64,000 nucleotides of DNA from an uncultured bacterium (lineage in GTDB: Bacteria > Vulcanimicrobiota > Xenobia > Xenobiales > Xenobiaceae), in the NCBI GenBank assembly GCA_958366945.1, contig CATXCY010000010.1, forward strand, positions 6,463 through 70,462. The letters run 5' to 3'. The translations under genes were made by a program, and so were the position numbers. The first letter of the stretch is position 1, and every line of letters begins with the position of its first letter. The notes beneath the pieces are model-generated. The model was not told the DNA's origin. It was given only the letters and a program-made list of their open reading frames with translations, and searched no databases. Shown here one piece after another: positions 1 to 44,623 of this stretch.

Positions 1-1439
1 CCGGCTTATATGCTACAGCTCCGGCGACCGAGGGCGGCTTAGGAGTAACCGCCGCTAAATTCGGTATTATCTTAATGGTCTGGTCTGGCTTCCAAGGATT
101 TGTACCCATTTTTGTTGGTGGCTTAGCCGATCGCTATGGATATAAATTAATGATTGGCATTTCTACGGCCGTAAAAATGGGCGCATATTTAATCATGGCC
201 GCTTTCCCAACTTTTTATGGATTTTTGTTGGGGGCTGTTTGCTTGGCTACAGGAACGGCTATATTTAAGCCTGGCATTCAAGGCACTTTAGCCAAATCGA
301 CTAAGCCGGAAAATAGTTCTATGGCTTGGGGAGTGTTCTATCAAACTGTAAATATCGGTGGTTTTATAGGCCCTGTTTTGGCTGGTTTTTTGCGTAAGAT
401 GGAATGGAGCCACGTCTTTTTGGCTTGTGCCCTGATTATTGCTTGTAATTTTCTACTTTTACTTACCTATAAAGAACCTGGCTTAGAAGAACGTTTGGCT
501 TTGGCCAAAGAGCGCGAGAAAAACAAAGAGAAACAGCGCAATATCGTTTGGGAAACTATAAACGAATTAAAACGCCCTCATTTATGCGTATTTTTGGCTA
601 TTTTTACTGGCTTCTACTTCATGTTTAATTGCATGTTTGACGTTTTGCCTTTGCATATTCGAGATTGGGTAGACAGCCGCGATGTAGTTACTACTGTTTC
701 TCACTTCCTTAATACTGATAATGCCATAGTCAGTTTTGTAATGATTTTGGACAAGACGAAAACCTTCATTCAGCCGGAAGGTATGTTGAACTTAAACTGT
801 GGCATGATCATGTTTACATGCTTCTTCTTTGCTTGGTTATCGTCTAAAATGCGCATTCTGCGCAGTATCGCCTTGGGGACTGCTTTGGCCGCTGTGTCAA
901 TGTGCTTAATTGGTATTTCCCATATGGGATGGTTCTGTTTATTGTCGATTGCTGTATTTAGCGTCGGAGAAATGCTTTCCAGCCCTAAATTTAGCGAATT
1001 TGTGGGCACTCACCTAGCTTCTAGCGATAAAAAAGGCATGTATTTAGGCTTGGGACAGATGTCTTTTGCTATAGGCTCAACTTTAGAAGGACTCGTCGCT
1101 CCCAGGCTTTACGACAAGCTGGCCTCTAAGGATACTTTCTCTAGACAGATGTTAGTAGATACTAATTTAATGACGCCAGATCAAGCAGCGGCTATTCAGC
1201 CAGGAGAAGCTTTCAATCAATTGGTGGCTTTAAGTGGCCGTACAGCTGAGGATTTGACTCAGTTTATGTATCACCATCACAATGTGGCTGCCATGTGGGA
1301 AATTATGGCTTGTATCGGTTTTGTAACCGCTTTGCTTATTTTGGCTTACTCTGTATGGTGGGCCAAAACTGGTCAGAGTGCTGCTGTAACAGCTACTTCC
1401 GTTCCCGCTAAAGTGGATAGCGAAGGCAAGGCTGAATAA
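1..1439 (+). CDS. MFS transporter (5'-partial; reading frame open to window start)
   Basis: Frame of the ORF at 75 stays open back to nt 3 with no stop. The 454-aa translation is highly hydrophobic with many TM segments and MFS-like loop motifs (GGLADRYGYK, G-rich helices). The C-terminus is hydrophilic. Confidence 0.65.
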   Translation, partial: GLYATAPATEGGLGVTAAKFGIILMVWSGFQGFVPIFVGGLADRYGYKLMIGISTAVKMGAYLIMAAFPTFYGFLLGAVCLATGTAIFKPGIQGTLAKSTKPENSSMAWGVFYQTVNIGGFIGPVLAGFLRKMEWSHVFLACALIIACNFLLLLTYKEPGLEERLALAKEREKNKEKQRNIVWETINELKRPHLCVFLAIFTGFYFMFNCMFDVLPLHIRDWVDSRDVVTTVSHFLNTDNAIVSFVMILDKTKTFIQPEGMLNLNCGMIMFTCFFFAWLSSKMRILRSIALGTALAAVSMCLIGISHMGWFCLLSIAVFSVGEMLSSPKFSEFVGTHLASSDKKGMYLGLGQMSFAIGSTLEGLVAPRLYDKLASKDTFSRQMLVDTNLMTPDQAAAIQPGEAFNQLVALSGRTAEDLTQFMYHHHNVAAMWEIMACIGFVTALLILAYSVWWAKTGQSAAVTATSVPAKVDSEGKAE

Positions 1440-1546: not shown

Positions 1547-3757
1547 TTAGGGCTGTCGGACTTTTTGATAAATTTCGTCAAGTCGGCGATTGGGAGTTTG
1601 ATTAAGTTGGACTTTAAATGCTTTTTGTAAGTTTTCAAAGGTTTTAGCGGCCAATTGTGGTTGTTGTATGGCTATATATGCTTGCATAAGCAAATAAGTA
1701 CATTGCTCGTGGAGTGGCTCTAAGCTTATGGCCTGAGAGGTTGTCTCGACCAATTCCGGCCAATCTCTTTGCCTATATTGATAAGAGGCTAGTTCTGTGA
1801 GGGCTTGCAAGGATATGTAATCGAGACGAACTCTCTTTAACGTGGCCCACTCCATAGAGCATTGGGGCAGAAAATGGCCCTGACTTAATTGTTTAATTTC
1901 TTTGAGTAAATGGATATTTTTGTTGGCTCTATATTGTCTCCATAATTTCTCCAAACTTTGCCAATCGGCAATTACTCTCAGGCGTGGGTTGGGTGCCAGA
2001 GCCGAAGAACAACGCGCTATGGGATCAAAATCTGGGCATTTGTCTTTAAAGATCTTTTTAATGATAGATAAAGCTTTCCAAAGGCAAGCTTGTCCGTTGC
2101 TACTTTCAGGCCAAAATTCCTCGATAATTTGCTCACAGCTTAGATATGCACCGTGATTCAATAAACGCAGTAGCAAATGTTTGGCTTTTTGAGTTGTCCA
2201 AAGTTTTGCTTCTATTGTTTCACCATTTAGTTTTACGGAACATTGTCCCAAAAGTTTGAGTTCTAGAGTGGGGGTAGAGAGCGCAGCAGTAATTGATGGT
2301 GGAGATAAGCTTGAGTTCATCGTGTTTATGTTAAGTTGTTCAAGGAAAGTATAGGAAAGTTGCTTTTTCCATCTTGTGGCAAAGCGTTTTAGTTGAGTTA
2401 TATGCTCAGGTGCAAAGCTTTGTTTAGACAACATTTCCACAATTTGGGCACTTTGCCAGCGCAGTAGTTTAACCAACTTGCTTTCCAGCGGACAGGGCAA
2501 CTGGCAATGCTGGTACAGGAAGTTTAACAGTAAAGGTAGCAGCCAGGGCAAGTCTATTTCCATTTGGAGTTCGTGCTTGGCTTTAAGTAAATTACCTAAA
2601 GCTTGGCTAATTTGCTCTGCTTTTACTGGTAAACAGCTTGAACTGGCCAGAATAGATCTAGAATAATGGGGCTCCAATTGCAGCTGATCTAAGATTGTTT
2701 GGGCTTTTTGCAATTCACTGAGGAAATATCGGCAATCGACTTTTATATATAGTAGATACGCTTCCAAGGCTGTCCTAGCCCAGACAGGAGGCCCCAAAGA
2801 CTTTGCTATTTGCATAGCTGATTGTAAGTAATTCAGAGCTTGTTTATTTTGTGAATTGCGCAAACAAAGAGCAGCCAAGCGCAATTGGGCTTTGATACCG
2901 CTTAAAGTTGGCTGTGTGCTTAAATGTTTTAAAATTTTCTCTGCTTCTTGCCAATATCCGCAATGGAAAAACGTAGAAGCCAGAGAGAGGTCGGCTAAGT
3001 CTTCTTTGGCATGGAGGCTGGAAGTATTTGGTTGTAAAGAAGCTGATAAGGCAGAGTCGATTATATATCTGGCCAGAGAAAATTCTGGCTTGGAGTAGTT
3101 TTTGAGGAAGCTGTCCTCCCACAATTCTAGACTTTTAGCAGAATTGTACCAGTGTTTTTGGGCAGATAAAGCTTGAAGGACGGCCCCTATTTCTATTTCC
3201 TGAACTATTGGAGATTCCAAATTCGCTTGCTGAGCCAAACTTTTCGCTAAAAGACCAGCTTGCTGGGCTGTTTTTACTGTATGGTCGCTAAAGCGACCTT
3301 CCAAAAAGCTGTTCAGCAAAGTCTGAATTGACCACGAGTGCAAAGCTTGTAAGCACAAGCTTTCTTCGCGTTGTTGTTGGTGTTGACGGGTTAATTTCAG
3401 AAGGCGGCCGATACGCTCTAAAAAAATGCTCACTTCGAAGGGTTTTCGCAAATAGTCGGCGACACTGAAACGGAGGGATCGTATCGAATCTTCCTCACTG
3501 ACAGTTTTGGTAATAGCTAAAACTGCCGCTTCTTTTAGATAATGATGCACTCTGGAAAGAGTCCGGTAGCTACTTAAATTACCAGAATGCACATCTAAAA
3601 CAACTAAATCGAATAATTTGCGTGAGGAGATCGCGACAGCTTTTTCCCCCCTGGCCGCAGCCATTACGTCAAATCCTTCGTCTTGAAGGACGCTAGCGAG
3701 CTTCTCTCGCAACGGCGCGTCATCTTCAAGCACCAGAATTCGTGCTGTCTTGATCAC
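1547..3757 (-). CDS. Hybrid response regulator: N-terminal receiver (REC) domain, central helical/TPR-like region, C-terminal winged-helix plus BTAD (SARP-type) DNA-binding/activator module
   Basis: GTG start. The N-terminus RILVLEDDAPLRE...FDLVVLDV...YLRKPF is a canonical CheY-like receiver with the acidic pocket and phospho-Asp. The C-terminus LKLLGQCSVKLNGETIEAKLWTTQKAKHLLLRLL...EQIIEEFWPE resembles the OmpR/SARP winged helix. It is followed by a BTAD-like segment (LEPLHEQCTYLLMQAYIAIQQPQLAAKTFENLQKAFKVQLNQTPNRRLDEIYQKV). Confidence 0.6.
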   Translation of the reverse strand: MIKTARILVLEDDAPLREKLASVLQDEGFDVMAAARGEKAVAISSRKLFDLVVLDVHSGNLSSYRTLSRVHHYLKEAAVLAITKTVSEEDSIRSLRFSVADYLRKPFEVSIFLERIGRLLKLTRQHQQQREESLCLQALHSWSIQTLLNSFLEGRFSDHTVKTAQQAGLLAKSLAQQANLESPIVQEIEIGAVLQALSAQKHWYNSAKSLELWEDSFLKNYSKPEFSLARYIIDSALSASLQPNTSSLHAKEDLADLSLASTFFHCGYWQEAEKILKHLSTQPTLSGIKAQLRLAALCLRNSQNKQALNYLQSAMQIAKSLGPPVWARTALEAYLLYIKVDCRYFLSELQKAQTILDQLQLEPHYSRSILASSSCLPVKAEQISQALGNLLKAKHELQMEIDLPWLLPLLLNFLYQHCQLPCPLESKLVKLLRWQSAQIVEMLSKQSFAPEHITQLKRFATRWKKQLSYTFLEQLNINTMNSSLSPPSITAALSTPTLELKLLGQCSVKLNGETIEAKLWTTQKAKHLLLRLLNHGAYLSCEQIIEEFWPESSNGQACLWKALSIIKKIFKDKCPDFDPIARCSSALAPNPRLRVIADWQSLEKLWRQYRANKNIHLLKEIKQLSQGHFLPQCSMEWATLKRVRLDYISLQALTELASYQYRQRDWPELVETTSQAISLEPLHEQCTYLLMQAYIAIQQPQLAAKTFENLQKAFKVQLNQTPNRRLDEIYQKVRQP

Positions 3758-3883
3758 GTATCTATAATTAAATTCTATATAAGTTGATTTCCTGCCACTT
3801 AGTCAGCAAAAAATTTCCAGTTTATTTCAGTGGTGTAGTTTATAACCGTAATAGCTAATTTATCCATAAGGGGGGAAATCTTT
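3758..3883. promoter_or_regulatory. Divergent promoter region between the REC-SARP regulator (-) and the pilus/T2SS-like operon (+)
   Basis: AT-rich 126-bp spacer between divergent starts. A strong RBS (aagggggg) lies just before the ATG at 3884. Confidence 0.35.
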
Positions 3884-4264
3884 ATGCTGAATTTTTTACC
3901 TGTTTTGTTAGACAAAGCTAAAAAACGCACCCTTTCGCCTTATGAATTTTCCAGACGCTGGCACTATATAAAATTAGGTATAGAAGAGCGTTGTGTTGGA
4001 GTGCAGCAAGAATTTGAAGAGGTACGTCGCCAGGCTTCTGGACGTGTTTCTAAAGGCAGAGTAGATAAACTTTTAAAAGGTGTCAGTGAAAAGGAAATTG
4101 AGCATTGGAAAGTGCTGGTTATTTGTATAGAAAACTGGCTGGAGCGCAGCGGCGGTTTTGCCTATTTGCAGCAAGCTCAACATTCCTTTGAAGTTGTCGA
4201 AAAACTTTGGAATAAAAGAATTAAAGCTCTCAAAGCGGTATGGGAAAGAGAAATAATAAGCTGA
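3884..4264 (+). CDS. Hypothetical protein (first gene of pilus/T2SS-like operon)
   Basis: ATG preceded by the RBS aagggggg. 126 aa, charged/helical, no recognisable motif. Confidence 0.5.
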   Translation: MLNFLPVLLDKAKKRTLSPYEFSRRWHYIKLGIEERCVGVQQEFEEVRRQASGRVSKGRVDKLLKGVSEKEIEHWKVLVICIENWLERSGGFAYLQQAQHSFEVVEKLWNKRIKALKAVWEREIIS

Positions 4265-4318
4265 GTTTATCTATAACGGAAGACTGTATTCTGCCGCAAT
4301 TCGAAGGGGAAAGGTATT

Positions 4319-4879
4319 TTGCTGCATACGTACTTAGGACATATTAACAATTGGCAATGGTTGAAAAGCCGAAGTTCGTCTGGCAAGCGCTTCGGCTTAC
4401 GCCACCATAATCAGCGAGGCGGAGCCTTAATTTTAGCTATGATGCTGACAACTGTGATGCTCATTTTGGGGGCCGCCCATCTTTTTGCCTTGCAAAGTGA
4501 ACGCCGATTCTCTGGGGTTCAGGAACGCAATTTACAAGCTTGGTATTTAGCAAAATCAGGATGCGATTATTTTTTCTATTATTGCCAGGGCGGTTCCCCA
4601 TCTTTTTTGCTAGAAGCGCCTGGTAACAAGTTGTCAGCGGAGCAAAAAGCTGATTCTGGTGAGTTGATATTAGCAAAAGTTCCTGTAGTTGAGGGGCTAG
4701 ACCATTATTATTTTGAAATAAGTCGCTTATCTGCTAAGGTCGTAAGAGTTAGAGGAGTAGTCGAAGGAACTTTAAGCAGTAGTGGTAAGCCTACTTGTTT
4801 AGAAACCAGTCTTTATATCGTGCGCGATTCCGCAGGGGGGTGGAAAAATGCAACATACGAACAAAGGCCCAATTTATAG
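4319..4879 (+). CDS. GspK-like minor pseudopilin (type II secretion / type IV pilus family)
   Basis: TTG start 5 nt after the RBS gaaggggaaagg. The N-terminus ...QRGGALILAMMLTTVMLILGAAHLF resembles the GspK N-terminal helix (QRG-A-L, hydrophobic stretch, no Glu at +5). It overlaps the next gene by 32 nt. Confidence 0.45.
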   Translation: MLHTYLGHINNWQWLKSRSSSGKRFGLRHHNQRGGALILAMMLTTVMLILGAAHLFALQSERRFSGVQERNLQAWYLAKSGCDYFFYYCQGGSPSFLLEAPGNKLSAEQKADSGELILAKVPVVEGLDHYYFEISRLSAKVVRVRGVVEGTLSSSGKPTCLETSLYIVRDSAGGWKNATYEQRPNL

Positions 4880-5510
4880 AAGAAAAAGTTTGGGCATTAC
4901 TCTTGTAGAGCTATTAATATGTTGTGCCTTGACGGTTCTTTTCGTAAGTTTGGTCGGTCAACTTAGTTTGGCTTCCGTGCGCAACTATAAGCATAGCGAG
5001 ATGGGCATGAGAGCTATGCGCTCTGCTGCTATAGCCATGGAAGTAATGAGCCGTGATTTGCGCTCTTGTGAGCAAATACTTTGGCCTAAAATTAGTGCCA
5101 ATACTTGGCGCCAAGGCTATCGTCTTTGCGGTGATGATAAGCTTGGTTTCAAATTCATTTTTCGCCAAGCTCCGGCTGCAGACGGTAAAGTTTCCATTGT
5201 TGGCTTTCATTGGGACTCTGAAAGCAAAATTTTAACTAGATGTTTGTATCGGCCAGAATTTAAGCCCAATGCTGATAATTTATCCGATCCCAAGCAAATA
5301 AATTCACGGCGTATTTTAGCACGTGAATTATCTTCTATAAGCGTAAATTCTGTTAATTGGCGCATGCGCGGTGGTTTGCAATTCCTGGAACTCAGTTTAA
5401 CAATCTCTTTTAGTGAACTGGAATCACATAAAAATAAACTTCGCGTCAAAAACGACAAAGAAAAACTATTTAGGAATTTATATACAGAAATTGAAATTTT
5501 GGGGGTGTAG
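4848..5510 (+). CDS. Prepilin-type N-terminal cleavage/methylation domain protein (minor pseudopilin)
   Basis: ATG after the RBS gggggtgg. The N-terminus KSLG|ITLVELLICCALTVLFVSLVG has a class-III signal: G at -1, Glu at +5 and a hydrophobic helix. Confidence 0.6.
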   Translation: MQHTNKGPIYRRKSLGITLVELLICCALTVLFVSLVGQLSLASVRNYKHSEMGMRAMRSAAIAMEVMSRDLRSCEQILWPKISANTWRQGYRLCGDDKLGFKFIFRQAPAADGKVSIVGFHWDSESKILTRCLYRPEFKPNADNLSDPKQINSRRILARELSSISVNSVNWRMRGGLQFLELSLTISFSELESHKNKLRVKNDKEKLFRNLYTEIEILGV

Positions 5511-5516
5511 TTCAGT

Positions 5517-6786
5517 GAAAAAAAAGGCATTGCGTGCTTATACTTTGCTAGAGCTGATGATGGGAATATTTCTGGTCTTTTGCGCTGCTGGTTACTTGCT
5601 GGGAACTTATGCCTTTGGAGCTAGAGCTAGCTTGAGTACAGATCGCTTTACAGCGGCTGTAAACTTGGGCCAAGCAAAAATGGAAGAATTACAAAACTGT
5701 CCATCGGCGCATTTGCTTACGGAGCAAAAAGGCAAGTTCCCTTACCCTCATCAAGATTACTATTGGCATATAAAAGTTTCAGCTTTTAGTAAAGACTTCA
5801 ATTTGCTTACTGTGCGTACAGGCCAAAACGGCGCTCCTTTATGCACATTGCGTCGACTTATCAACACTGCTTCGTACACTTCTATAGATGCTCACATCTA
5901 CGATAGTGAAACTATTTTTACTGACAATAGTTCTAAGTTGCCTTTTGCCAAAGTCTCTTTTTGGGAGCCCTTTGCAACTACGCCTAAAACTGTTGGAGCT
6001 GCTGTCAACTGGCCCACGGGAGCAATTTGTGGCCATCCAGGATTGGGGATCGTTTGGGCTTCGCATAGTCAACAACCCAAGATCATGCAAATGCTTTTTA
6101 ATGCCGAGGGCAAGAATATTGCTTGTAAGACTATTGAAGTGCCTGCTAACAATCAGGGATACAGAGCTCACATAATTGATTTAGCTGCTGATAAGATGGG
6201 CAACTTCCTTTTTTGTGCTGACAGTGCCAATAGAGCTTTGTGGGTGTTAGATGATTCAGGCAGCAGTGGAGGAGACTATTCGTGGAAAGACGGTCTGTGT
6301 TTAGTAAGTAAACAAAAACCTATACAGGATTTGCGCGGAATTGCTTGTGATCAATACGGTAGCACTATTTGGCTTTGCGAAGGTGCTCCCCGTCGTTTGC
6401 GTCAGTTCTATTGGGGAAAAATGCCTAAAGAAGGAGTACAAGAAAAAATTAACTCCTTTTCTGGATGGGGCGAAATTGTGGATGTGCCTTTCTCTGGATC
6501 GGGGCGTTTGCATTCTGTCGCTGTCAATAGTTGGGGGTCTGCCATTTATACTATCGATAATAGTTTCGTTTACACTCTAATTTTTCAAGAAAATGGTGAC
6601 TGTGGTATTTGGCAGCAAATCCCTATGTCGGAAGCGTTGCGCAAAGCTCAACCTAGAGCTTTATGGATTGATCCTGGTAACAGCCGTTTATATATAAATA
6701 CGCTTGCAGGAGGACAGTGGGCAGCGGCGCCTTCGATAGATGGTACTTTAAAAAGCAGTAGTTTCAGTCGGATAAATTGGAGGTAA
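5517..6786 (+). CDS. Pilin-like protein with C-terminal NHL/beta-propeller-like domain (start placed at internal GTG; ORF track begins at 5413)
   Basis: GTG after the RBS gggggtg. The N-terminus VKKKALRA|YTLLELMMGIFLVF is prepilin-like with Glu at +5. The C-terminal ~250 aa show repeated Trp/Gly/Asp-rich blade-like motifs (LRGIACDQYGSTIWLCE, LHSVAVNSWGSAIYTID, PRALWIDPGNSRLYIN). Confidence 0.5.
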
Positions 6787-6791
6787 ATATA

Positions 6792-7823
6792 ATGGAGAAA
6801 ATTTTTATCTACCGCCAACTTGGAGTAATGCTTCGTTCTGGAGTTCATGTTGTCAAAGCTTTGGAAGCTGTCGCTCATTGTTGCAAATATAAAGACGAGC
6901 AAAACATTTGGTTGGAAGTGAGTCAAGAAGTTTGTCGAGGGAGTACTTTAACTCAGGCTTGGAGTTCGCATCCTGAATACTTTGAGTTGATAGAAGTAGG
7001 GCTAATTAAAGCTGGCGAAGCCTCTTGCGCTCTGGACGAAATTTGCTTTGATATTTCAAAGTTCTTTTCTATGGAGTTGGAGCTAAAACGTAAATTAAGT
7101 TCAGCTTTGCAATATCCATTGACGGTATGCTTGGGATTTGCCGTTTTAAGTTGTCTGGTTGCACTACATATTATTCCTTCATTTGCTCCTATCTTTGATT
7201 CTTTGGCCAGATTGCCTTTACCAACTTTAGTTTTATTGGGCTTTGTATCTTTATTGCAAAATAAAGCGCTTTGGGCTATTTGCGGAAGTTCTGTTTTAGC
7301 TTTTTGTCTAGCTTTAAAAACTTATCGCTTTTCTTCATACGGGCAGAGAAAATGGCAAATGTTTGTGCTGACCGTCCCTTTATTGGGTAAAATTGTCAGA
7401 AATATCGTTACCGCTCGTTTTTGCCACACACTGGCTGTACTTTTGCGCAGTGGTTTGCCGTTGAATAGCTCTTTGCAAATAACTGGTTTAGCTTTAGCTA
7501 ACTACCCGTTGGCTTCAGCTTTAGAACACACTATATCTGGAGTTAATCAAGGCTATGAGTTTAGTGAAGCCTTGCAAATAGGCAAGTATTTCTCCAAGAC
7601 ATTCATAAATGCTATGCGTGTAGCTACTGAGGCTAATAGCTTAGATGATGTTTTAGAGCGTTTGAGCAAGTTCTATAACGAACAAGTTAATTGTGATATA
7701 AGCAAATTCACAGTTTTAATCGAGCCCGTTTTGCTCTGTGTTATGGGGGTAGGTACTGCTGGGGTGCTTTTAGCCTTATTTGCACCTTTATATGAATTTA
7801 TCAATTTAAGCGCTGTTTTATAG
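6792..7823 (+). CDS. Type II secretion / type IV pilus platform protein, GspF/PilC family
   Basis: ATG 8 nt after the RBS ggagg. Two T2SSF repeats: IFIYRQLGVMLRSGVHVVKALEAV and TARFCHTLAVLLRSGLPLNSSLQITG...ATEANSLDDVLERL. Polytopic TM segments. Confidence 0.7.
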   Translation: MEKIFIYRQLGVMLRSGVHVVKALEAVAHCCKYKDEQNIWLEVSQEVCRGSTLTQAWSSHPEYFELIEVGLIKAGEASCALDEICFDISKFFSMELELKRKLSSALQYPLTVCLGFAVLSCLVALHIIPSFAPIFDSLARLPLPTLVLLGFVSLLQNKALWAICGSSVLAFCLALKTYRFSSYGQRKWQMFVLTVPLLGKIVRNIVTARFCHTLAVLLRSGLPLNSSLQITGLALANYPLASALEHTISGVNQGYEFSEALQIGKYFSKTFINAMRVATEANSLDDVLERLSKFYNEQVNCDISKFTVLIEPVLLCVMGVGTAGVLLALFAPLYEFINLSAVL

Positions 7824-7843
7824 GTAAGATTATAGGGGGAGAT

Positions 7844-8917
7844 ATGAGTAAAGAACATCATGTAATTATTTATGATCAAGATTGCATAGTTGGTGATATG
7901 CTTATCTATGCATTGCAAAATACAAATTGTAGAATCACTCGCCTAAGGGGGAATGCTGCGCGGCTTATCGACCAATTGCTCAAACAAAAAGCCGATCTTC
8001 TGATAGCCAACTCTGGCCCAAATCTTGGCAATTTATTACATTTGCTTCGATGTTGTCGTGCTAAATATCCTCAACAAAAGCAAATTTTAATTACGGCTGC
8101 TTGGAATAATTTAGATGAAATGCTCAAAGGTGAAAAAATAGAAGCTGTGCTTTTGAAGCCTTTTAAGCTAAGTCAGCTTAAGGAAATAATTGAAAATTTG
8201 CTTCCTGAAGAAAGGCCGATTGCGCAAATGAACTGGCGCAAAAAACTTTTGGGAGTCAAACGATGGATCGTCAATATGTTTCAGGATCTTAAACTTAAAA
8301 ATGTATTGGAGGGAATTAAGCAAAAATTAAAGCGGTTATGGCGATGTTGGCTTTTAAAAAGTATAGAAGATGAACGCTTACAAATGTTCAAGTTGGCTTA
8401 TCACTTTTGTCAATCAAAATTCGCTAGCCATAAGGGCATTTTAGACCTGTGGTTGTATTTAGAATTTTTGGAGAGGCGTTACCTTCTAGCCAAATGTGGT
8501 GTAAATGTTGAGCGTGACGCTTTGCAATTTTATTATGCTACTCTCAGAAGCAAACTTGAGCGAGGCCTTTGCGGTTGGGCTGTTTCACTTAAAGGTGGTG
8601 ACGGCTTGGGCCCAGAACTGGATTCTGCTCAATTTTCAAAGTTTTATTATCGACTCAAAAATAAAGAATTGAGCTTTAGTTGCTTTATACAAGCAGCCCA
8701 AGCCAGACTTGTGCGTTGGGCTCTAAGTCGTCCTTCAGCCGTCAGCATACACAAAATGCTTAAAAAAACACCCCTTACACTTCGAAAAACTTCGTCTTGG
8801 CAATCATTGTCCGACAAGAGACGAATTGAACAACTCAAAGCAGAAGCCGAAATTCTAGCCTTGACTTCGACTAATGAACACGAACTAAAAGAAGTTTTTC
8901 AAAAAGTGTGGTGCTGA
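7844..8917 (+). CDS. Pseudo-receiver domain protein with C-terminal helical domain of unknown function
   Basis: RBS gggggag. The N-terminus HHVIIYDQD...ADLLIANSGPN...LLKPFKL has a receiver-like fold, but the phospho-acceptor Asp position reads LLIAN, so there is no Asp. Confidence 0.45.
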   Translation: MSKEHHVIIYDQDCIVGDMLIYALQNTNCRITRLRGNAARLIDQLLKQKADLLIANSGPNLGNLLHLLRCCRAKYPQQKQILITAAWNNLDEMLKGEKIEAVLLKPFKLSQLKEIIENLLPEERPIAQMNWRKKLLGVKRWIVNMFQDLKLKNVLEGIKQKLKRLWRCWLLKSIEDERLQMFKLAYHFCQSKFASHKGILDLWLYLEFLERRYLLAKCGVNVERDALQFYYATLRSKLERGLCGWAVSLKGGDGLGPELDSAQFSKFYYRLKNKELSFSCFIQAAQARLVRWALSRPSAVSIHKMLKKTPLTLRKTSSWQSLSDKRRIEQLKAEAEILALTSTNEHELKEVFQKVWC

Positions 8918-8973
8918 CGGCCACAGATTAGTGCGGCTTGGCTTATTTCTCAAGTTTGCTCAACAACCATTTC

Positions 8974-9354
8974 CTACTTTTTATTTTTTGTACCGCCGGT
9001 AAATACTGAACCAAAACGGGCCAACTTGCTAAAAACGCCAAAGTGTTTTCTTATAGCTTTAATTTGCTCGGCACTGACAAAAATGCCTTGACAATGTTCA
9101 CATCTTGGTAAAGTTAAGTCAAATTCATCGATGTGCTCATTTTTGAGATCGAAGCCACAGTGCGGGCATTTCATGTAGTGAATGTTGGCCGCTTGTTCCT
9201 CTTCTTGCTTAGCCTGTTTCTCTCTCGTCTCTCTGGTCTTTTTTAGTTCGAGTAGCAGTCTTTCTTCATGCTCACGCAAGCCTCTGGCAGTATCATGTTT
9301 GCTGGCTAGTTGGTCTTGAGTTTTGCCTCTTCCGGACAAACTATCATTACTCAT
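8974..9354 (-). CDS. Zinc-ribbon domain protein
   Basis: CPHCG...x24...CEHCQG four-Cys ribbon after a charged coiled-coil-like N-terminus. Confidence 0.4.
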   Translation of the reverse strand: MSNDSLSGRGKTQDQLASKHDTARGLREHEERLLLELKKTRETREKQAKQEEEQAANIHYMKCPHCGFDLKNEHIDEFDLTLPRCEHCQGIFVSAEQIKAIRKHFGVFSKLARFGSVFTGGTKNKK

Positions 9355-9518
9355 TTATATACAACCTCCGAAATGTCGGGTACGCGAACTGCAACAGTTT
9401 CAAATTCGCCTGTTAATTATTTTCCCCTTTGTAAAAAAGTTAACGTCTAGCCTAAGAGCAGGAAGGCCAGATCTTGCATAAAATTTAGACGACAAGTTGT
9501 TTTTGAGGAAGATTCAGT

Positions 9519-12577: not shown

Positions 12578-13846
12578 TTAATTGATAACTTGGTGCAACT
12601 CTTTGCGGTTCATACAATTGAGATATATCTCTTCCAGGACGTATTTTACTTCATGATCGTTGCGCTTTTGCAATCCTTTTGTCACGATCAGAAAACGAGC
12701 AGCGAAGCTGTCGGGGATCTTCTCGAAAGGCATATGTAACATGTTCAGCATATGGCCCAAAATAATACGTGCAGTACGACTGTTTCCATCTTGGAAAGGA
12801 TGAATATGCACAAACTCGTTATAAGCGTAAGCGCACAAATCGAGAGCTTCTTCAAAAGTAGAAGGCTCGCAGCCTGATAGATTGTCAACTAACTGGCGCA
12901 ATCGCTGAGGAATTTCGTTAATAGGAGCAGGCTTGAAGTTGGGGTTATTAGCTATGACCACCTCATGATCTCGATAAACGCCACCAAAGTTTGTGTTGGC
13001 CATGGCTAAATGGTGATATTCGCGCAAAATATCTACGGTCAACCTTTTGCCGTCGCGACTGTATTCTTGCATCTTTTGCCAAGAATTTTCGTAACACTCC
13101 TTAGAAGCAGGATCGAACATTTCCGAATCTTCTTTTTCGACGCTTTCTTTTATCTCTTCTCCCAAAGGAGAAAGCCCCCAATTGCGTCCCGCTAGGTTTT
13201 TGTTATGAAAGAGTTCCATAGCCGCTTGCAACTGGGGATCGTCTGGATTTTGAAAATTCTCAGTGCGTCCTTCCAAAAATTGCTCTAAGGGCATCTTTCT
13301 CCTAAAAAAGAAAGACTTGGCACGTTTGATCTTTAAATAGTCGCATAAACCGTCCAAGAATATGTTCTCTACCATGCGTCCGGTAAATGGCTCATAGCTA
13401 TAAATAAGCAACAGAGCATTATCTACTAAACGACAGAGTAAAGCTGGATCTAAAAGCTCGGCAGGTACATCTCGATTATTAAAATGATCGCTTCTGTAGG
13501 CTTTTTTCAAGAAAGCAATCATTTGTTCGGAAAAATAAAAATTGTAGTCGCAATTAGAAGCTAGAGCGAAAGAGAGCGTTTGTCGCAAATTCTTAGCCAC
13601 TTGCGATTTATTGTTAAGAATGTAGTGATCGCGACTATCGCAGACAATTAGCCCTTCTTCTTCTAAGTCATACAGGGGCTTAATTAAAGAACGCTCACGA
13701 TCGACATGTAAGATGTGAGCTAGTCTGGTCAGAGCAATCCCTTCCGGGCGTCCGGCTACGCAAGCAAAAAGATCCCATCTGGTAATATCTTGAGAACTTA
13801 AATGAAAGCTGTGATTTGAAGGGAGAGACATTTTTGCAATACCCAA
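12578..13846 (-). CDS. Fic/DOC family protein with N-terminal winged-helix-like region
   Basis: Fic active-site motif HPFQDGNSRTAR (HxFx(D/E)GN(G/S)RxxR). Confidence 0.8.
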   Translation of the reverse strand: MGIAKMSLPSNHSFHLSSQDITRWDLFACVAGRPEGIALTRLAHILHVDRERSLIKPLYDLEEEGLIVCDSRDHYILNNKSQVAKNLRQTLSFALASNCDYNFYFSEQMIAFLKKAYRSDHFNNRDVPAELLDPALLCRLVDNALLLIYSYEPFTGRMVENIFLDGLCDYLKIKRAKSFFFRRKMPLEQFLEGRTENFQNPDDPQLQAAMELFHNKNLAGRNWGLSPLGEEIKESVEKEDSEMFDPASKECYENSWQKMQEYSRDGKRLTVDILREYHHLAMANTNFGGVYRDHEVVIANNPNFKPAPINEIPQRLRQLVDNLSGCEPSTFEEALDLCAYAYNEFVHIHPFQDGNSRTARIILGHMLNMLHMPFEKIPDSFAARFLIVTKGLQKRNDHEVKYVLEEIYLNCMNRKELHQVIN

Positions 13847-25881: not shown

Positions 25882-26031
25882 CGGCGTAATTTTATACTTC
25901 TGCCAATCACTTTGCCTGCTGCTTTTGTCTATTCGGAGGCAAAGTGATTGTTCATTATAGAAAATTTTATATTCCATTGCTGGATAAAAATACAGGAAGC
26001 CCTGCAATACAATAGAACTTTCTACAGTATC

Positions 26032-27249
26032 ATGGCTAAATTTCCAGTGCTAGACGATAACTTTCCACGTATTATTCCTTCTTTCAGACAGTTAGTAAAA
26101 ATTATGTCCGAATGTGTGGCCGGCGGAGTTAGCTTAACTTGTACCGCCTTTGAGTTCCGCCAATGTGATGCTGCTTTAGGAACAGCTTTGGGCAATTTTA
26201 TGGAAGTTTTGCGCTTAAAAGAACTTCCTCCAGAGCGCAATGAAGCAATTAACGAAATAGTGCTTTTGTTTACGCGTATGAGTTCCGAAATGGCCAAATT
26301 AGAAACAGCTCTGAGTATGGATGCTACAGCTGCGGCCGTTTCTTGTGTGGCCAATATTTACGATCACTTAAAAGATTTGGAAGAATTAAATATGGACTTG
26401 AAAGCCGCTGTTGGCGATAGCCATATTTATTCCGAAGTGCCGGTGGTGGACAGTTTACTGCGAGCGGGCAATTTTGTCTTAGAAACTAACGGAGCCGAAT
26501 GGGAAGCTCTGAGTGCCCGTTTGGAAGCTCTTATTCCTCAGTGGAATGAGATCGTCTCTGGTACTGGACTGCCGGAAGAACTAATTCGCCACGACAGAGC
26601 GTTGGAGCGCCTCGTTGAGGTACTTAACGAGCGAAATTTAGAAGCTTTGCCAAAAGTTCTGGAAGAAGTAAAATCCAGCGGCGAAGATCTGGTCAACTTC
26701 CAAGATAGTCAAATAGACACCGATACTTCCTCTGTAGTTTTGTGCCCCTATTGTGGTAAGCCTATGATCGAGGGTAGTAAGAAGTGCTTCTCTTGCGGCG
26801 CCAGGATGCCAGAAGAATTTGAGCGAGATTCTACAGCCGACAAAGATTCTGAAAAAGGCGAAGCGGCTTATGAAGGCATGCCAGAATATGTACAGCGTAT
26901 TATGGATATCGCTCAAGAACTTCCCAATAATGCCAAGATGATTCGTCCTTTCAAACGTGCTGTGGGAGAATTGCGTAGACGTGTAGCCGATGCCAATTCG
27001 CGTATCAATAAAATGGCTTCTTCTAAAATTAAGACCACTCCGGAAGAACGCGAAAATATTGATGGCATCGTAGATTTAGCTAATACTTGCATAGAAAATC
27101 TCTCTAAAGCCGTTGAGCTTTTGGAGGAGTTTGAACCACCTGTCGACAGGTTCCATTTGCAATGTGCTTTGGAAGTTATGGTTAAAGCGGTCAAAGAAAT
27201 GCGTGGCATGGGCGGTTTGGCTCAAAAATATCGCAATTCTAAAAAGTAA
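26032..27249 (+). CDS. Zn-ribbon-containing helical protein, paralog A
   Basis: N-terminal motif FPVLDDNFPRIIP and central CPYCG...CFSCG ribbon. It aligns along its length to the next gene. Internal ATG chosen (ORF track starts at 25948). Confidence 0.5.
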   Translation: MAKFPVLDDNFPRIIPSFRQLVKIMSECVAGGVSLTCTAFEFRQCDAALGTALGNFMEVLRLKELPPERNEAINEIVLLFTRMSSEMAKLETALSMDATAAAVSCVANIYDHLKDLEELNMDLKAAVGDSHIYSEVPVVDSLLRAGNFVLETNGAEWEALSARLEALIPQWNEIVSGTGLPEELIRHDRALERLVEVLNERNLEALPKVLEEVKSSGEDLVNFQDSQIDTDTSSVVLCPYCGKPMIEGSKKCFSCGARMPEEFERDSTADKDSEKGEAAYEGMPEYVQRIMDIAQELPNNAKMIRPFKRAVGELRRRVADANSRINKMASSKIKTTPEERENIDGIVDLANTCIENLSKAVELLEEFEPPVDRFHLQCALEVMVKAVKEMRGMGGLAQKYRNSKK

Positions 27250-27294
27250 TCAGTTCTCTTTTGCGTGCACATGACACAGCTCATTGGAGGTACC

Positions 27295-28485
27295 ATGGTA
27301 GATAAGCTGCCTAAGCTAGATGATTCTTTCCCCAAATTGATTCCCCATTTGCGTACTTTTGTAAGTGGTTTGGAACATTGTATAGTCAATAAAGAACCTC
27401 TTTCCCAGCTTCGTGAAGAATTACACCAATGCGATGTTGTTATGTCTGCTTTTGTACTGGCTTTTAAGTACAGTGTGCGCGGCTATGACTACAACGAAGA
27501 AGAACTGGAACATATCGCTCAAGTTTATGCCGATATTGAAGGTGTCGGTGGTGTGCTTTCTTCTCTCATTTGTGATTTAAAAGACGATGATGTCGAAGGC
27601 GCTGTACGTGATGTTAATGCTCTGGTCAATCAGTTGAAAGAAACTGAAAAAAGCTTAGCCAAGCTCGAAGAACTAAGAAATTCCAAGGCAAAGATTTCTG
27701 AATTTGACAGCATTGATGGAGTCCTTAAAGCTGGTCAGGCCGTGGTTGAGGGACGTCGTGGTTGGGAAATGTTGGAAAATCGTCTCGACTATTTGCGCCC
27801 ATCTTTTGATAAGCTGGTCGCTTGCAACTCTTTGCCTGAGCATATAGAAGATTATTGCGAAGCTTTAGATAATTTATTTAGAGTTTGCGAATGTCAATCT
27901 GTAGAAGAATTACCTGCCGCCTTAGAAGCTTTAAAAGCGACTGGTGATGTACTGATAGAAAAATATAAAGAAGCTAAAGCTAAACAAGAAGCTTTGGCTG
28001 CACAACAAGTTTGGCATTGCCCTAAGTGTGGTTGTGAAGTCAGTGAATGGGATAAGCGTTGTCCTTCTTGTGGAATGAGGCTGCCTGAGCGTATCGTCAG
28101 TGAAGTAGGGACTGAGAATAATTGTTTATTGCCCATGTTACCTACATGCGTGCAAACAATTTTAGATAGCGTAAGCTCTTTGCGCGAAGGTAATGATGCT
28201 TGGGCCGAGTTCTCAGCTGGATTGCATGAATATGGCAAATTTGTAGGCGAGCTTAAAGATAGGTACGCCTCTTTGCCAGAAAGTGTTTTTAATGGCGCTG
28301 AAGCAGAAGGTGAGTCTTTGATTCTATCTCGCGAAGCTATGGAAGAAGGACTCACTAAATTAGAAAATGCCTATTATGTATGTGAACACATGCAAAATGG
28401 TGGCGAAGTTAGCGATGAGGAACTCGATTCTACGCTAGAAAGCATGATTGAGGGAGTAGAACAAACACGTCAAATAGCTGGTTAA
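27295..28485 (+). CDS. Zn-ribbon-containing helical protein, paralog B
   Basis: ATG after the RBS ggagg. N-terminus LPKLDDSFPKLIP, ribbon CPKCG...CPSCG, acidic helical regions. Collinear with paralog A. Confidence 0.55.
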   Translation: MVDKLPKLDDSFPKLIPHLRTFVSGLEHCIVNKEPLSQLREELHQCDVVMSAFVLAFKYSVRGYDYNEEELEHIAQVYADIEGVGGVLSSLICDLKDDDVEGAVRDVNALVNQLKETEKSLAKLEELRNSKAKISEFDSIDGVLKAGQAVVEGRRGWEMLENRLDYLRPSFDKLVACNSLPEHIEDYCEALDNLFRVCECQSVEELPAALEALKATGDVLIEKYKEAKAKQEALAAQQVWHCPKCGCEVSEWDKRCPSCGMRLPERIVSEVGTENNCLLPMLPTCVQTILDSVSSLREGNDAWAEFSAGLHEYGKFVGELKDRYASLPESVFNGAEAEGESLILSREAMEEGLTKLENAYYVCEHMQNGGEVSDEELDSTLESMIEGVEQTRQIAG

Positions 28486-31044: not shown

Positions 31045-33303
31045 CTAATCAAACATTTTATCTAATTCGGCTTTTTTAAAGCGTTGAGGCTCGTGACCAG
31101 TCCAGTCGATCACAAAATAAATCTTTTCTGGTTGTTGTATTTTGCTGAAAAAACGTATTTGATCTGTAGGTAGCATTTTATAATTGTAATACCAGCCAGT
31201 GGGAGAGGGTTTGGAAATTCCTTTGGCATGAAGATGGCGAGCACCTTTAGGGAAGAAGGGCATAACTCGTGCAGCCAATTTCTCGCCTAAAACTTTGCAC
31301 CCCATATCGCCGCGCATTATTAAGCGGAGGTGGGGAGCGAAGAGTAAGCTGCTTTCAAAGCCTACCGTCTGCCCTTGAAAATCGCCTTCTACGGTATCGC
31401 GAATTATCAATCTTTGTTCTGTAGGCTTAAAAAGAAGCTCACGTCTTAAACTTAAAACTAAACCGTTAGTTAGATGAGCTTGACGCCTTGTCCACAAGAG
31501 TACATCCGCTCCTCCTTTTCTTTCCCTATACAAAGGAGAGCAAAAAACGTAACCCTCTTTATGTATCTCAGTTATATTGTCAGGAAAATCTATGCGTTCG
31601 GAAGCGTTCAAATCTCCCAAATAGGCCACTTTAAAAGGCGAAACTTCCTCGGCAAGTGTGGGAGCGGAATGGGAAAAAAAGCTATTTAAATAAGGATAAG
31701 CGCTGCTAGAAATAGTGGAAAAACCAGCATCTATAAGGAATGGCTCATTTTCTATAGTTAAAAATATTGATAAGAAATCACAATGTGGCTGGGGCACAGC
31801 TTGGTGTAAATTGGGAGCTTTATAAAAACCTTTAGTTAGATCGGCAGTTGGACAACCTTTTATAATGGCCTGAGAACTGTTGGCTCCCCAATGATCACGC
31901 ACACTGCCTATACCATTGGCAACGAAATAAAAACTTGTCTCTTCAGGAAAATAATCTCCTCGACCAGCACCAAATTTGGCGGTGAGCTCTGGAGTAGGAG
32001 CTACCCACCAAGACACTTCCGCAGGCATACGCTCTATGCCACATAAGAATTCGTCATGGTCGAAAACTATGGCACCCAGACATAATAAAGTCTGAATATA
32101 CTCGGATATAGAGGATTGCCTTCCCATAAATCCTGGAGCACAAAATGTGCCTATATGAGGAGCTACTTTATTGGTGCCGTTAATAGCTTGCAAAGCTTCA
32201 AGAGAAATGCGCAGCGCTTCTGATAAATATTGCGGAGTTTGGGTATGATTGCTTACATGCTGCAATACAGGCAATAGCATCCATTCTAAAGCCGCACAAT
32301 GAGCGCATAAAGATCCACTTAAATGTAACCCGCTACTTCCAAACTCACGTTCAATAAGGTCTAAAAGCTTAGACTCTGCAACTGAACGCCACCGCTTAGA
32401 TAATTTTAATTCAGGAAAATTGCTTGCGAATACATAGAGACAGGCTGCAGCAGGGAACGATAAAACTGTATCGTAGCGAAGGTGCCAAGCCAAAGCTGCT
32501 CCGTGTACGATCATCGTTTCCATTATTTTCGCGAAAATACGGGGCGTAAAAGCAGAGCTGTGTAAACACATATCAACGGCAATCATCCAGTTCATCAGCC
32601 TGATGGCTACCGTATCAAAATTTAGCCAGTTTACACCTATCCAAAGAGGATTGCTGGCTCCCCATTCAGTCGCTTGAATGAGAATCTCGGAAGCGTATTT
32701 GTCCTGTTTGCTAAGCCAATAAGAGCGGGCCAAAGTGAGAAAATGATAATGCTCATTTAGCTCCCAGGTACGATCCAAAGAAGGATACTTGGCTAAGGGA
32801 GATTCGCTCAGATTGGCTTTATTATCCGGAGATAAAACTTTTCTCAGCTCTTTAACGGCAGTTCTAGGCCAGCTTCTAGAGCAAAAATCGGAAAACCAAT
32901 CAATGTTGCCAGTGAAAGTTTCTTGTTGGTTGGAAAGATAAGAAGAAAAAGTATGCCTCATCGCTTGCTGCGTCGAGTCACTGAGCTCTTTGACAGCTGA
33001 AGGAGAGGATTTAAACGCATTTGCAACTTCCTTGGTGTCTGAATGTCGCAAAAATAGCGTAGGGCGACTGCGGTCGCGGAAGTGATTGAAGAGCGCTTCC
33101 GCGGCCTTATCAGGTTGATCGTGCAAAGAATAATTTTTTGCTTCCTCGATTCCAGGTGCTCCAGAGAATTGCCCAAACAAATATTTGTCTTGCAAATCGT
33201 AAGTAGAACAACTGTCGTAAGCCAAATCGACCTGAGCCTCCAAGCTAAATGGCATGGAAGAAGTGATTATATTCTTACGTAACCAAGGAAACATATTATC
33301 CAA
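31045..33303 (-). CDS. Heparinase II/III-like (alginate-lyase superfamily) protein
   Basis: 752 aa. N-terminal alpha/alpha toroid-like region with W/N/R-rich motifs (WIGVNWLNFDTVAIRLMNWMIAVD) and a C-terminal beta-sandwich-like region. Immediately downstream of a DegT aminotransferase. Confidence 0.55.
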   Translation of the reverse strand: MDNMFPWLRKNIITSSMPFSLEAQVDLAYDSCSTYDLQDKYLFGQFSGAPGIEEAKNYSLHDQPDKAAEALFNHFRDRSRPTLFLRHSDTKEVANAFKSSPSAVKELSDSTQQAMRHTFSSYLSNQQETFTGNIDWFSDFCSRSWPRTAVKELRKVLSPDNKANLSESPLAKYPSLDRTWELNEHYHFLTLARSYWLSKQDKYASEILIQATEWGASNPLWIGVNWLNFDTVAIRLMNWMIAVDMCLHSSAFTPRIFAKIMETMIVHGAALAWHLRYDTVLSFPAAACLYVFASNFPELKLSKRWRSVAESKLLDLIEREFGSSGLHLSGSLCAHCAALEWMLLPVLQHVSNHTQTPQYLSEALRISLEALQAINGTNKVAPHIGTFCAPGFMGRQSSISEYIQTLLCLGAIVFDHDEFLCGIERMPAEVSWWVAPTPELTAKFGAGRGDYFPEETSFYFVANGIGSVRDHWGANSSQAIIKGCPTADLTKGFYKAPNLHQAVPQPHCDFLSIFLTIENEPFLIDAGFSTISSSAYPYLNSFFSHSAPTLAEEVSPFKVAYLGDLNASERIDFPDNITEIHKEGYVFCSPLYRERKGGADVLLWTRRQAHLTNGLVLSLRRELLFKPTEQRLIIRDTVEGDFQGQTVGFESSLLFAPHLRLIMRGDMGCKVLGEKLAARVMPFFPKGARHLHAKGISKPSPTGWYYNYKMLPTDQIRFFSKIQQPEKIYFVIDWTGHEPQRFKKAELDKMFD

Positions 33304-33315
33304 GCCGCAGATCTC

Positions 33316-34416
33316 CTAATGACGAGGGAAATTCTTAATTGTAGATACTACAGTGGCAATTTGCTCGTCGCTAAGTTCGGGGAACATAGGCAAGGACATG
33401 ACTTCTTTTTGCACTTGCTCGCAAATTGGCAAAGAGCCTTCCTTCATGCCGCTGGATGCAAAAGTTTTTTGCAAGTGAAGGCATACTGGGTAGTAAATGG
33501 CCGGACCAACACCGTTTTCACGCATATAATCGAAAAGCTCGTCACGATGAGGAGTGCGAATAGTGTACTGGTGGAAGACGTGATGGAAACCTTCGCGCTC
33601 AAGAGGAGTGATCACTCCGCTGTCTTTCAGAGCTTCTGTGTATTTTTGAGCTACAGAGCGACGCTTTTTATTCCACTCATCGACATGTTTGAGCTTGACG
33701 CGCAAAGCGGCAGCCTGAATTTCGTCTAAACGACTATTGGTGCCTAAAATTTCGTGATAGTATCTGACCTTACTGCCGTGACCGCGCAGCATTTGCACTT
33801 TTTCAAAGTACTCGTCGCTATTGGTTAAAACCATACCGCCGTCGCCAATACCGCCTAAGTTTTTGCTGGGGAAGAACGAGAAACAGCTGAGATCGCCGAA
33901 TCCTCCGACTTTTTTGCCATCTACGCAAGCTCCGGTAGCTTGAGCGCAGTCTTCAATTAAAGCTAAATTGTGCTCTTGGCAAATAGCCTTAATGGCTTTG
34001 ACATCGGCAGCGTGTCCGTAAAGGTGGACGCAAATTACAGCTTTGGTATGTGGAGTGATAGCTTTCTTTAAGCTTTCCGGATCTAAAGTAAAAGTGCGAG
34101 GGTCAATATCGGCAAATACAACTTTGGAACCAGCCAAAGCTACAGCGCCGGCGGAAGCTACAAAAGTGAAGGAAGGGACGATAACTTCATCGTCGGCTTT
34201 AAGATCTAGGGCTCTCACTGCCAATTGCAGAGCATCAGTGCCGTTCCCTACGCCTATACCGTGTTTAACTCCGTTCCAAGCCGCAAACTCTTCTTCGAAA
34301 GCTTTTACTTCGGGGCCTAAAACATATGCAGTAGAGCGCAGAACTTTCAGTACGGCTGCTTCCAATTCATCTTGGATTTGAGAGTACTGAGTGCGAAGCT
34401 CTAAAATAGGGATCAT
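33316..34416 (-). CDS. DegT/DnrJ/EryC1/StrS-family PLP-dependent sugar aminotransferase
   Basis: VIVPSFTFVASAGAVALAG, DCAQATGA, FSFFPSKNLG (PLP lysine). 366 aa. Confidence 0.88.
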   Translation of the reverse strand: MIPILELRTQYSQIQDELEAAVLKVLRSTAYVLGPEVKAFEEEFAAWNGVKHGIGVGNGTDALQLAVRALDLKADDEVIVPSFTFVASAGAVALAGSKVVFADIDPRTFTLDPESLKKAITPHTKAVICVHLYGHAADVKAIKAICQEHNLALIEDCAQATGACVDGKKVGGFGDLSCFSFFPSKNLGGIGDGGMVLTNSDEYFEKVQMLRGHGSKVRYYHEILGTNSRLDEIQAAALRVKLKHVDEWNKKRRSVAQKYTEALKDSGVITPLEREGFHHVFHQYTIRTPHRDELFDYMRENGVGPAIYYPVCLHLQKTFASSGMKEGSLPICEQVQKEVMSLPMFPELSDEQIATVVSTIKNFPRH

Positions 34417-36583: not shown

Positions 36584-36624
36584 ACGTCTCCCAGAATAGT
36601 TTATAAAAGTCCCAATTTACCAGG

Positions 36625-44596: not shown

Positions 44597-44623
44597 GTTG
44601 CTTTTTGTCTCTCCGTATTGTGC

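Follow-up and report, generated by a model that had tools for sequence, protein, structure and literature searches.

The gene at positions 5515-6786 (forward strand) of the stretch of DNA analyzed herein probably encodes a modular I-class minor pilin, by which an NHL-type beta-propeller would become part of the initiation complex at the tip of a type IV filament. The stretch, called the window throughout, comprises 64,000 nucleotides of contig CATXCY010000010.1 from an uncultured bacterium of the Xenobia. The product of the gene, referred to below as the target, is an unannotated, lineage-restricted modular minor pilin of 423 amino acids. It extends published concepts and does not change them, because the modular pilin design has already been published.

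The gene and its signal peptide

The open reading frame (ORF) of the target begins at a GTG codon at 5515 and ends at a stop codon at 6784-6786. An earlier reading of this DNA, made from the letters alone (the sequence-only reading), had placed the start two nucleotides further 3'. The GTG at 5515 follows a Shine-Dalgarno-like GGGGGTG run, and four nucleotides separate the gene from the preceding one. The position of the start is the same in the homologues. A longer ORF, beginning at the GTG at 5413, was rejected, because ~100 nucleotides of it would lie within the upstream gene and the starts of the homologues give it no support. At 43.5%, the G+C content of the gene is close to the 43.1% of the window and gives no hint of a foreign origin. 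Direct sequence searches of Pfam and the Protein Data Bank (PDB) with the target protein returned no match.

The protein begins with MKKKALRA/YTLLELMMGIFLVFCAAGYLLG, where the slash marks the predicted cleavage site, and has a single hydrophobic segment by hydropathy (residues 6-34). As in type IV pilins, a short basic leader ending in Gly or Ala is followed by about 20 hydrophobic residues past the cleavage site, with Glu at position +5 (IPR012902/PF07963). Among the 33 relatives with complete N-termini, the leaders are basic and 4-15 amino acids long, and the residue at -1 is Gly in 26 and Ala in 7. Position +2 is Ser or Thr, and position +5 is Glu, in all 33. These features are kept across relatives of only ~20% identity. 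Because class III leaders terminate in Gly or Ala (PMC10191384), the Ala at -1 in the clade of the target is canonical. The Pfam N_methyl model was matched by 21 of the 36 full-length relatives at E <= 0.1 (best E 3.1e-6).

A chance match to the motif was also considered and rejected. When all six frames of the 64 kb were searched with the regular expression [GAS]-x-[ST]-h-h-E-h plus a hydrophobic tail, just two convincing prepilin motifs emerged, at 4893 and 5536, and these lie in adjacent genes. By its sequence, the protein starts with a class III (prepilin) signal peptide of canonical form, whose cleavage is predicted. The prepilin N-terminus with Glu at +5 (A/YTLLE) put forward in the sequence-only reading was therefore borne out by the conserved -1, +2, and +5 residues of the relatives. 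That reading had named a lack of prepilin processing as the finding that would count against it; the sequence shows canonical prepilin features instead.

The pilin module

In the AlphaFold model (described below), the pilin region had a pLDDT (predicted local distance difference test) of ~86-96 and consisted of a helix (residues 11-60) and four strands (70-74, 82-90, 95-104, and 110-117). The lollipop fold of type IV pilins, with a long alpha1 packed on an antiparallel beta-sheet, is thus predicted. A profile search of the PDB matched the N-termini of pilins (E 3.6e-4) and, marginally, the globular part of two GspI chains (5bw0_B, E 0.67; 5vtm_V, E 1.6). In NCBIfam, the sole notable match was XpsI, the GspI equivalent; its E value was 1e-3 with the whole protein and 8.4e-5 when the module was searched alone (residues 7-94). 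When 28 relatives of the module were searched with hidden Markov models (HMMs), XpsI matched 20 of them, GspI 19, ComGE 21, and PilV 13, with best E values from 1e-7 to 1e-14. XpsI/GspI, ComGE, and PilV are the equivalent "I" subunit in type II secretion systems (T2SS), Com pili, and type IVa pili, respectively. We assign the module to this I class (GspI/PilV/ComGE) with moderate confidence, because the GspI chains of the PDB match only marginally.

With the GspI, PilV, and ComGE families (TIGR01707, NF047828, TIGR02523, and NF041013; PDB 5bw0 and 5vtm), the target shares a head of ~110 amino acids formed by alpha1 and four strands, as well as a gene neighborhood that includes a K-like pilin and another prepilin. 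The canonical members of these families stop after the head, whereas the target continues into a propeller of 300 amino acids and scores far below the equivalog cut-offs.

The predicted beta-propeller

An initial AlphaFold model from 14 close sequences reached a pLDDT of 72.5, with residues 120-156 disordered. It was superseded by a model built on 36 diverse family members (pLDDT 87.6, predicted template modeling score 0.82). In the latter, the pilin module (residues 1-117) is joined by a linker of ~6 residues (118-123) to a domain of ~23 strands (residues 121-423). The first three strands of this domain (124-126, 132-135, and 145-148) are followed by five groups of four, which begin at residues 168, 220, 273, 334, and 380, and the final strand ends at 420. 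We read this pattern as six putative blades, the first with three modeled strands, in a ring that may be closed.

HMMs made from single blades confirmed the repeat, as they also recognized other blades in the target (blade 3 to 4, E 5.5e-5; 4 to 3, E 2.5e-4; 6 to 4, E 3.4e-4; 1 to 4, E 2.6e-3). By the last of these matches, residues 121-150 are a genuine blade. With either model, the top 50 Foldseek matches in the PDB were all beta-propellers (best E 4e-9), of the lactonase/YVTN/WD40 and LRP6 YWTD types. Because these matches, at 8-15% identity, are mostly seven-bladed, they establish the fold class and not the number of blades.

The NHL family of Pfam (PF01436) was matched by 20 of the 36 relatives at E <= 0.1 (best E 1.9e-12). 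The propeller of the target, which is too diverged for the Pfam model, therefore appears to be NHL-type by homology to these relatives. Its repeat motif and predicted fold are shared with the six-bladed NHL propellers and with the SGL/lactonase propellers. The residues conserved in at least 90% of the 36 relatives are D236 and N239 in blade 3, W286 and R296 in blade 4, and A336 and D348 in blade 5. The Asp, Asn, Arg, and Trp residues among them are probably structural parts of the repeat, with no obvious catalytic set.

The sequence-only reading had described an NHL-like propeller of ~250 amino acids, built from repeated blade motifs and fused to the pilin itself, and had proposed that blades be counted in a predicted structure. 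The fold, the fusion in one protein, the repeated motifs, and (through the relatives) the NHL label all stood; the size did not, as the domain spans ~300 amino acids and six predicted blades. A predicted structure other than a propeller, which would have spoken against that reading, was obtained neither by AlphaFold nor by Foldseek.

Distribution of the family

A word-indexed search found 13 relatives, all of them full length (406-430 amino acids) and 41-99% identical to the target. The close relatives that carry an organism label belong to Candidatus Bruticola (Vulcanimicrobiota, equivalent to Eremiobacterota; class Xenobia). A scan of genome collections located the close relatives in UBP9/UBA4705, in metagenome-assembled genomes (MAGs) from the human gut of the Hadza, in Bruticola MAGs, and in a MAG from goat rumen. 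Among the complete or nearly complete Xenobia MAGs with the gene are GCA_051874695.1, GCA_017458675.1, and UBA4705/DHKB01. One distant family member comes from a MAG labeled Armatimonadota. In addition, an 80%-identical gene fragment was found on a contig labeled "Candidatus Riflebacteria" (CAAGRW010000080.1, locus L011); since all the other close relatives are UBP9/Xenobia, this MAG is probably mislabeled or misbinned.

An exhaustive profile search gave 879 matches at E <= 1e-3. About 45 of these are full-length two-part proteins of 370-500 amino acids, and the others are pilins of 110-180 amino acids that cover positions 1-110 only. The full-length homologues matched the profile over their whole length, with E from 1e-30 to 1e-120. 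All annotated relatives are labeled "hypothetical protein", and the family is otherwise nameless.

Some proteins whose N-termini matched the I-class profile carry other domains. P0119 has a C-terminal RCC1 propeller; P0075, P0080, and P0099 have PD40/TolB-like repeats, and P0080 also matches T2SSI; P0067 has NHL; and P0045 has a weak match to a cytochrome c-like domain. The I-class pilin module thus seems to have acquired propellers from three or more unrelated repeat families. The presence of RCC1, PD40, and NHL on one class of pilin gives propeller cargo the appearance of a recurrent feature with independent origins.

The operon and its conservation

The genes from 3884 to 8917 all lie on the forward strand and either overlap or are separated by at most 55 nucleotides (Table 1). 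The K-like gene upstream of the target matched Pfam PilX_N at E 1.3e-6, with a score of 28.7 bits (cut-off 25.5). It also matched the N-terminus of GspK in NCBIfam (E 1.1e-5), as did its orthologues. Its true start is probably downstream of 4319, and its product, of ~120-160 amino acids, lacks the alpha-domain of GspK. The second prepilin matched only the generic pilin N-terminus in the NCBIfam and PDB profile searches, and all its orthologues carry G/xT/SLxE (the first slash being the cleavage site).

The platform paralog downstream of the target begins at the ATG at 6792, which follows a GGAGG; the ORF list gives a TTG at 6777. It matched both GspF (E 5e-56) and PilC (E 2e-53), in all cases below the equivalog cut-offs. 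The protein is short (343-348 amino acids) and aligns from position ~60-70 of the GspF and PilC models. The divergently encoded REC-TPR-BTAD regulator may control the pilin operon. A promoter and terminator scan of positions 3600-9500 found fewer sites than in shuffled sequences.

Table 1. Positions in the window of the parts of the target, its apparent operon, and the divergent regulator
Feature	Position	Strand	Basis
Leader peptide MKKKALRA, predicted prepilin-peptidase cleavage after Ala8	5515..5538	+	Leader comparison with relatives
Alpha1 helix, residues 9-60: hydrophobic alpha1N with Glu13 (+5), amphipathic alpha1C	5539..5694	+	Hydropathy, model, PDB profile
Pilin head, residues 70-117: predicted four-stranded antiparallel sheet, GspI/PilV/ComGE class	5722..5865	+	Model, HMMs
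Predicted blade 1, residues 121-165: three modeled strands, conserved SIDAHxYDSE	5875..6009	+	Model, blade HMM
Predicted blade 2, residues 166-217: strands 168-174, 179-184, 189-195, 201-208	6010..6165	+	Model
Predicted blade 3, residues 218-268: FxFCADSANRALWVLDDS, the best NHL-like motif	6166..6318	+	Model, blade HMM
Predicted blade 4, residues 269-326	6319..6492	+	Model, blade HMM
Predicted blade 5, residues 327-372	6493..6630	+	Model
Predicted blade 6, residues 373-423: conserved C-terminal strand, ending in WR	6631..6786 (stop 6784-6786)	+	Model, blade HMM
First gene of apparent operon: 126-amino-acid soluble protein, no family match	3884..4264	+	Conserved in Xenobia loci
GspK/PilX-like minor pilin (cap type): QRGG/ALILAMML, no Glu at +5	4319..4879	+	PilX_N, GspK N-terminus
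Second prepilin: KSLG/ITLVELL, Glu at +5, ~205 amino acids mature	4848..5510	+	Motif; J-class by position only
Target: pilin-propeller protein	5515..6786	+	ORF analysis
PilC/GspF-type platform paralog	6792..7823	+	T2SSF, E 8e-42
Last gene of apparent operon: 357 amino acids, degenerate receiver-like N-terminus	7844..8917	+	Response_reg, E 5.5e-3, below cut-off
Divergent REC-TPR-BTAD (SARP/AfsR-like) regulator	1547..3757	-	Response_reg, E 2e-14; BTAD, E 1.4e-9

The gene order of the pilin operon is kept in the Xenobia relatives down to 42% identity. In all the Xenobia loci, the 126-amino-acid protein and a receiver-like protein of ~350 amino acids flank the pilin and platform genes. The REC-TPR-BTAD regulator occupies the same position in two of these loci (L001 and L003), and a histidine kinase adjoins it in L001. 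In the Bruticola relative L003, we also observed a FHIPEP/FlhA flagellar export gene (positions 1-725, reverse strand) ~9 kb from the pilin operon. Given this gene, the gut Xenobia may have flagella, in contrast to V. alpinus, the cultured relative (PMC9758169).

At ~20% identity, the trio of K-like pilin, second prepilin, and I-class NHL protein is kept in three of the four distant loci inspected (L017, L018, and L020). The trio is followed by a T2SSF gene in L017, is preceded by one in L018, and in L020 is followed by unrelated genes, with no adjacent platform gene. With the exception of L019, which likewise has no platform gene adjacent to the pilin gene, the K-like gene keeps its position in all the loci that were inspected. 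The platform gene adjoins the pilin gene in the Xenobia loci, L017, and L018. In L017, a PilT-like ATPase, a PilZ protein, and a second T2SSF gene lie ~4-8 kb from the trio. The presence there of two T2SSF genes, one by the trio and the other near the PilT-like ATPase, suggests that the platform protein is dedicated to the pilin set.

Proposed role and alternatives

Minor pilins form a complex at the tip, from which a type IV filament grows (PMC10191384, PMC13533445, PMC7541494). K, the capping subunit of the filament, has no Glu5 and is recognized by a dimer of the I and J subunits (PMC10191384, PMC13533445). The phylum has a single cultured member, which is diderm, bears pili, and has pilMDTC genes (PMC9758169). 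A K-like pilin devoid of Glu5, a second prepilin, and the I-class target together have the composition expected of an I-J-K initiation set, and lend indirect support to a location of the target at the tip.

In the mechanism that we propose, prepilin peptidase would remove the leader MKKKALRA after Ala8. The mature protein would begin with YTLLE and comprise the hydrophobic alpha1 with Glu5, the four-stranded I-class head, the linker of ~6 residues, and the six-bladed NHL-type propeller of ~300 amino acids. The target would be co-transcribed with the cap pilin, which is GspK/PilX-like and lacks Glu5, and with the second prepilin. The three pilins would then form the tip (initiation) complex for the polymerization of a type IV filament, with the co-encoded PilC/GspF platform paralog. 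At the filament tip, the propeller would be displayed as a ligand-binding (adhesive) module, taking the role of a docked PilY1 or of the grafted modules on PilB and PilC of Streptococcus sanguinis.

Within this model, we give an adhesive or ligand-binding role about twice the probability of an enzymatic one. As the hosts are gut and rumen Xenobia, one may speculate that the ligands are host or dietary glycans, proteins, or other cells. The K-like protein is small and has neither the GspK alpha-domain nor a PilY1 partner; that the propeller fills the space left by them is again speculative.

Several observations weigh against an I-class tip pilin with an NHL propeller. The target itself was not matched in Pfam, even at E up to 1, by N_methyl or by the repeat families, including NHL. 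The isolated pilin module scored 22.6 bits with XpsI, against a curated cut-off of 150, and the second prepilin can be called J-class by its position only. In the distant locus L019, no small pilin genes were called upstream. Finally, the 64-kb window contains no prepilin peptidase, extension ATPase, major pilin, secretin, or PilMNO; its other genes are housekeeping ones (MutL, DnaG, RpoD, a DEAD-box helicase, a radical-SAM/aminotransferase cluster, and the dcw cluster). The pilD gene is present in V. alpinus, the cultured relative (PMC9758169).

A more specific version of the proposal, which can be described as a "cis-PilY1", is a tentative one and rather unlikely to hold in full. In this version, the target would be a propeller adhesin of the Eremiobacterota, fused to the I subunit of a minimal K-J-I complex that has its own platform paralog, and either the propeller or the C-terminal WR strand would license assembly as well as bind the ligand. 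If it were true, the target and the PD40 and RCC1 fusions would form a recurrent, undescribed class of propeller-tipped type IV filaments, with an evolutionary origin independent of PilY1.

It is improbable that the target is instead the GspI-type subunit of a T2SS-like pseudopilus, whose propeller would engage substrates or the secretin at a periplasmic tip and would not be a surface adhesin. Such a subunit would suit a diderm phylum (PMC9758169), and the T2SS models do come first in several searches: XpsI/GspI gave the best single HMM matches of the pilin module, GspF was the best match of the platform protein, and the K-like gene matched the GspK N-terminus. However, ComGE and PilV match relatives on the same scale as GspI, and the PilC models score nearly as well as GspF on the platform paralog. 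Neither the window nor the 20-kb loci of the relatives contain a secretin or GspC/E/L/M near the pilin gene, T2SS-type genes being limited to the T2SSF paralog, with the PilT-like ATPase in L017. In that distant relative, the nearby PilT-like retraction ATPase and PilZ protein point to a retractile pilus. The small size of the K-like protein and its lack of the GspK alpha-domain also argue against a pseudopilus.

Less probable still is that the propeller is an enzyme, namely an SGL/PON-type lactonase or arylesterase, or a lyase, displayed on or anchored by the pilin module. Peptidase modules on pilins have already been cataloged (PMC8179133), and the top fold matches of the target in the PDB are propellers of the 6-phosphogluconolactonase type. 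Besides NHL, the 36 relatives matched SGL (11), Arylesterase (5), and Vgb_lyase (1) in Pfam. These matches overlap, however, because SGL, Arylesterase, and NHL share one repeat. The fold matches are distant and mostly differ in blade number, as described above, and the highly conserved residues, which fall in blades 3-5, include no evident metal-binding set. Least likely of all is that the signal peptide is an anchor or export signal only, on a surface or periplasmic NHL protein that never polymerizes (an analogue being the archaeal "bindosome", with its substrate-binding proteins that have prepilin-type signals): the window has no assembly ATPase or major pilin and the distant L019 and L020 no adjacent platform gene, but conservation extends beyond the signal peptide to the full I-class head, Glu5 is strictly conserved, and the K-like cap pilin and another prepilin are constant partners.

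Comparison with known tip proteins

More than 1,200 modular pilins, with 264 architectures, have been cataloged, among which PilB (vWA) and PilC (lectin) of S. sanguinis have been characterized (PMC8179133). The sequence-only reading had asked for a comparison with fusions of tip pilins and adhesins, and in this comparison the target fits the modular pilin design as defined there, the NHL identity of its module being taken from relatives. Like S. sanguinis PilB and PilC, it has a small N-terminal pilin module, a short linker, and a bulky module foreign to the pilus (PMC8179133, PMC9934059, PMC10191384). All are encoded beside other minor pilins, and tip exposure is predicted or shown. In S. 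sanguinis, however, the I-like PilA is unadorned (PMC10191384), whereas in the present case it is the I-class subunit itself that carries the module. The grafted module of the target, which is known from sequence, is a predicted six-bladed NHL propeller with no detectable sequence relationship to S. sanguinis PilB or PilC.

With the PilC/PilY1 adhesins of type IVa pili (PMC7541494, PMC13533445), the target would have in common a propeller tied to the I-J-K minor pilins at the filament tip, and it shares with them a gene next to those of minor pilins. PilY1 is not a pilin, and is held through its C-terminal beta-strand on the K subunit (PMC13533445); the target is itself a prepilin, with the propeller covalently joined to the I subunit. 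The propellers also differ, that of the PilY1/PilC family (IPR008707, per PMC8179133) carrying variable N-terminal modules and that of the target being NHL-type. The PilY1/PilC family of Pfam matched neither the target (E up to 1) nor any of the 36 relatives (E up to 0.1), and no PilY1 structure was present among the top 50 Foldseek matches in the PDB. Homology to PilY1 was therefore rejected, and the parallel with PilY1 drawn in the sequence-only reading holds as a functional analogy alone.

Other pilin-like tip subunits with extra domains are GspK, with its alpha-domain insert, the type IVb CofB/TcpB, ComZ, and TadG/CpaL (PMC8179133, PMC13533445). In these, the carrier is K-like or type IVb and the added domains have other folds, with no propeller, in contrast to the I-class carrier of the target. 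A literature search returned no description of a pilin fused to an NHL domain or other propeller, the architecture datasets of PMC8179133 being outside its scope. Since many relatives match both N_methyl and NHL, the N_methyl+NHL architecture is probably already listed there without comment.

How type IV filaments bind specifically through their tips is an active question, to which the known solutions are pilin modules with grafted domains and PilY1 docked on K. The family of the target combines both, in that the I subunit of a putative tip-initiation set is itself fused to a propeller, and it does so in an almost unstudied, uncultured lineage of the gut and rumen (Xenobia). PD40 and RCC1 propellers are likewise found on the I-class module, which suggests that propellers are a favored tip cargo. 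At ~420 amino acids, the family offers a compact candidate adhesin for structural and binding work, and it could serve to mark a dedicated pilin set in the Eremiobacterota.

Other observations in the window

A 422-amino-acid protein encoded at 12578-13846 (reverse strand) has a Fic motif (HPFQDGNSRTARI) and a winged-helix-like N-terminus. Its synteny is conserved, and the Pfam Fic match was seen on its orthologues in L001 and L003. At 25948-28485 (forward strand) are two adjacent, paralogous-looking proteins of ~400-430 amino acids, in which a central zinc ribbon is the sole recognizable feature. A divergent Hsp70/actin-fold protein of 603 amino acids (34769-37131, reverse strand) adjoins a DUF2760 protein.

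At 39177-46423 (reverse strand), four radical-SAM proteins are encoded in a row, two of which carry B12-binding domains, as is a DegT-type aminotransferase fusion. The region 31045-34416 encodes a heparinase II/III-like protein and another aminotransferase of the DegT type. The radical-SAM, DegT, and heparinase-like genes may form a cluster for the modification of glycans or secondary metabolites.

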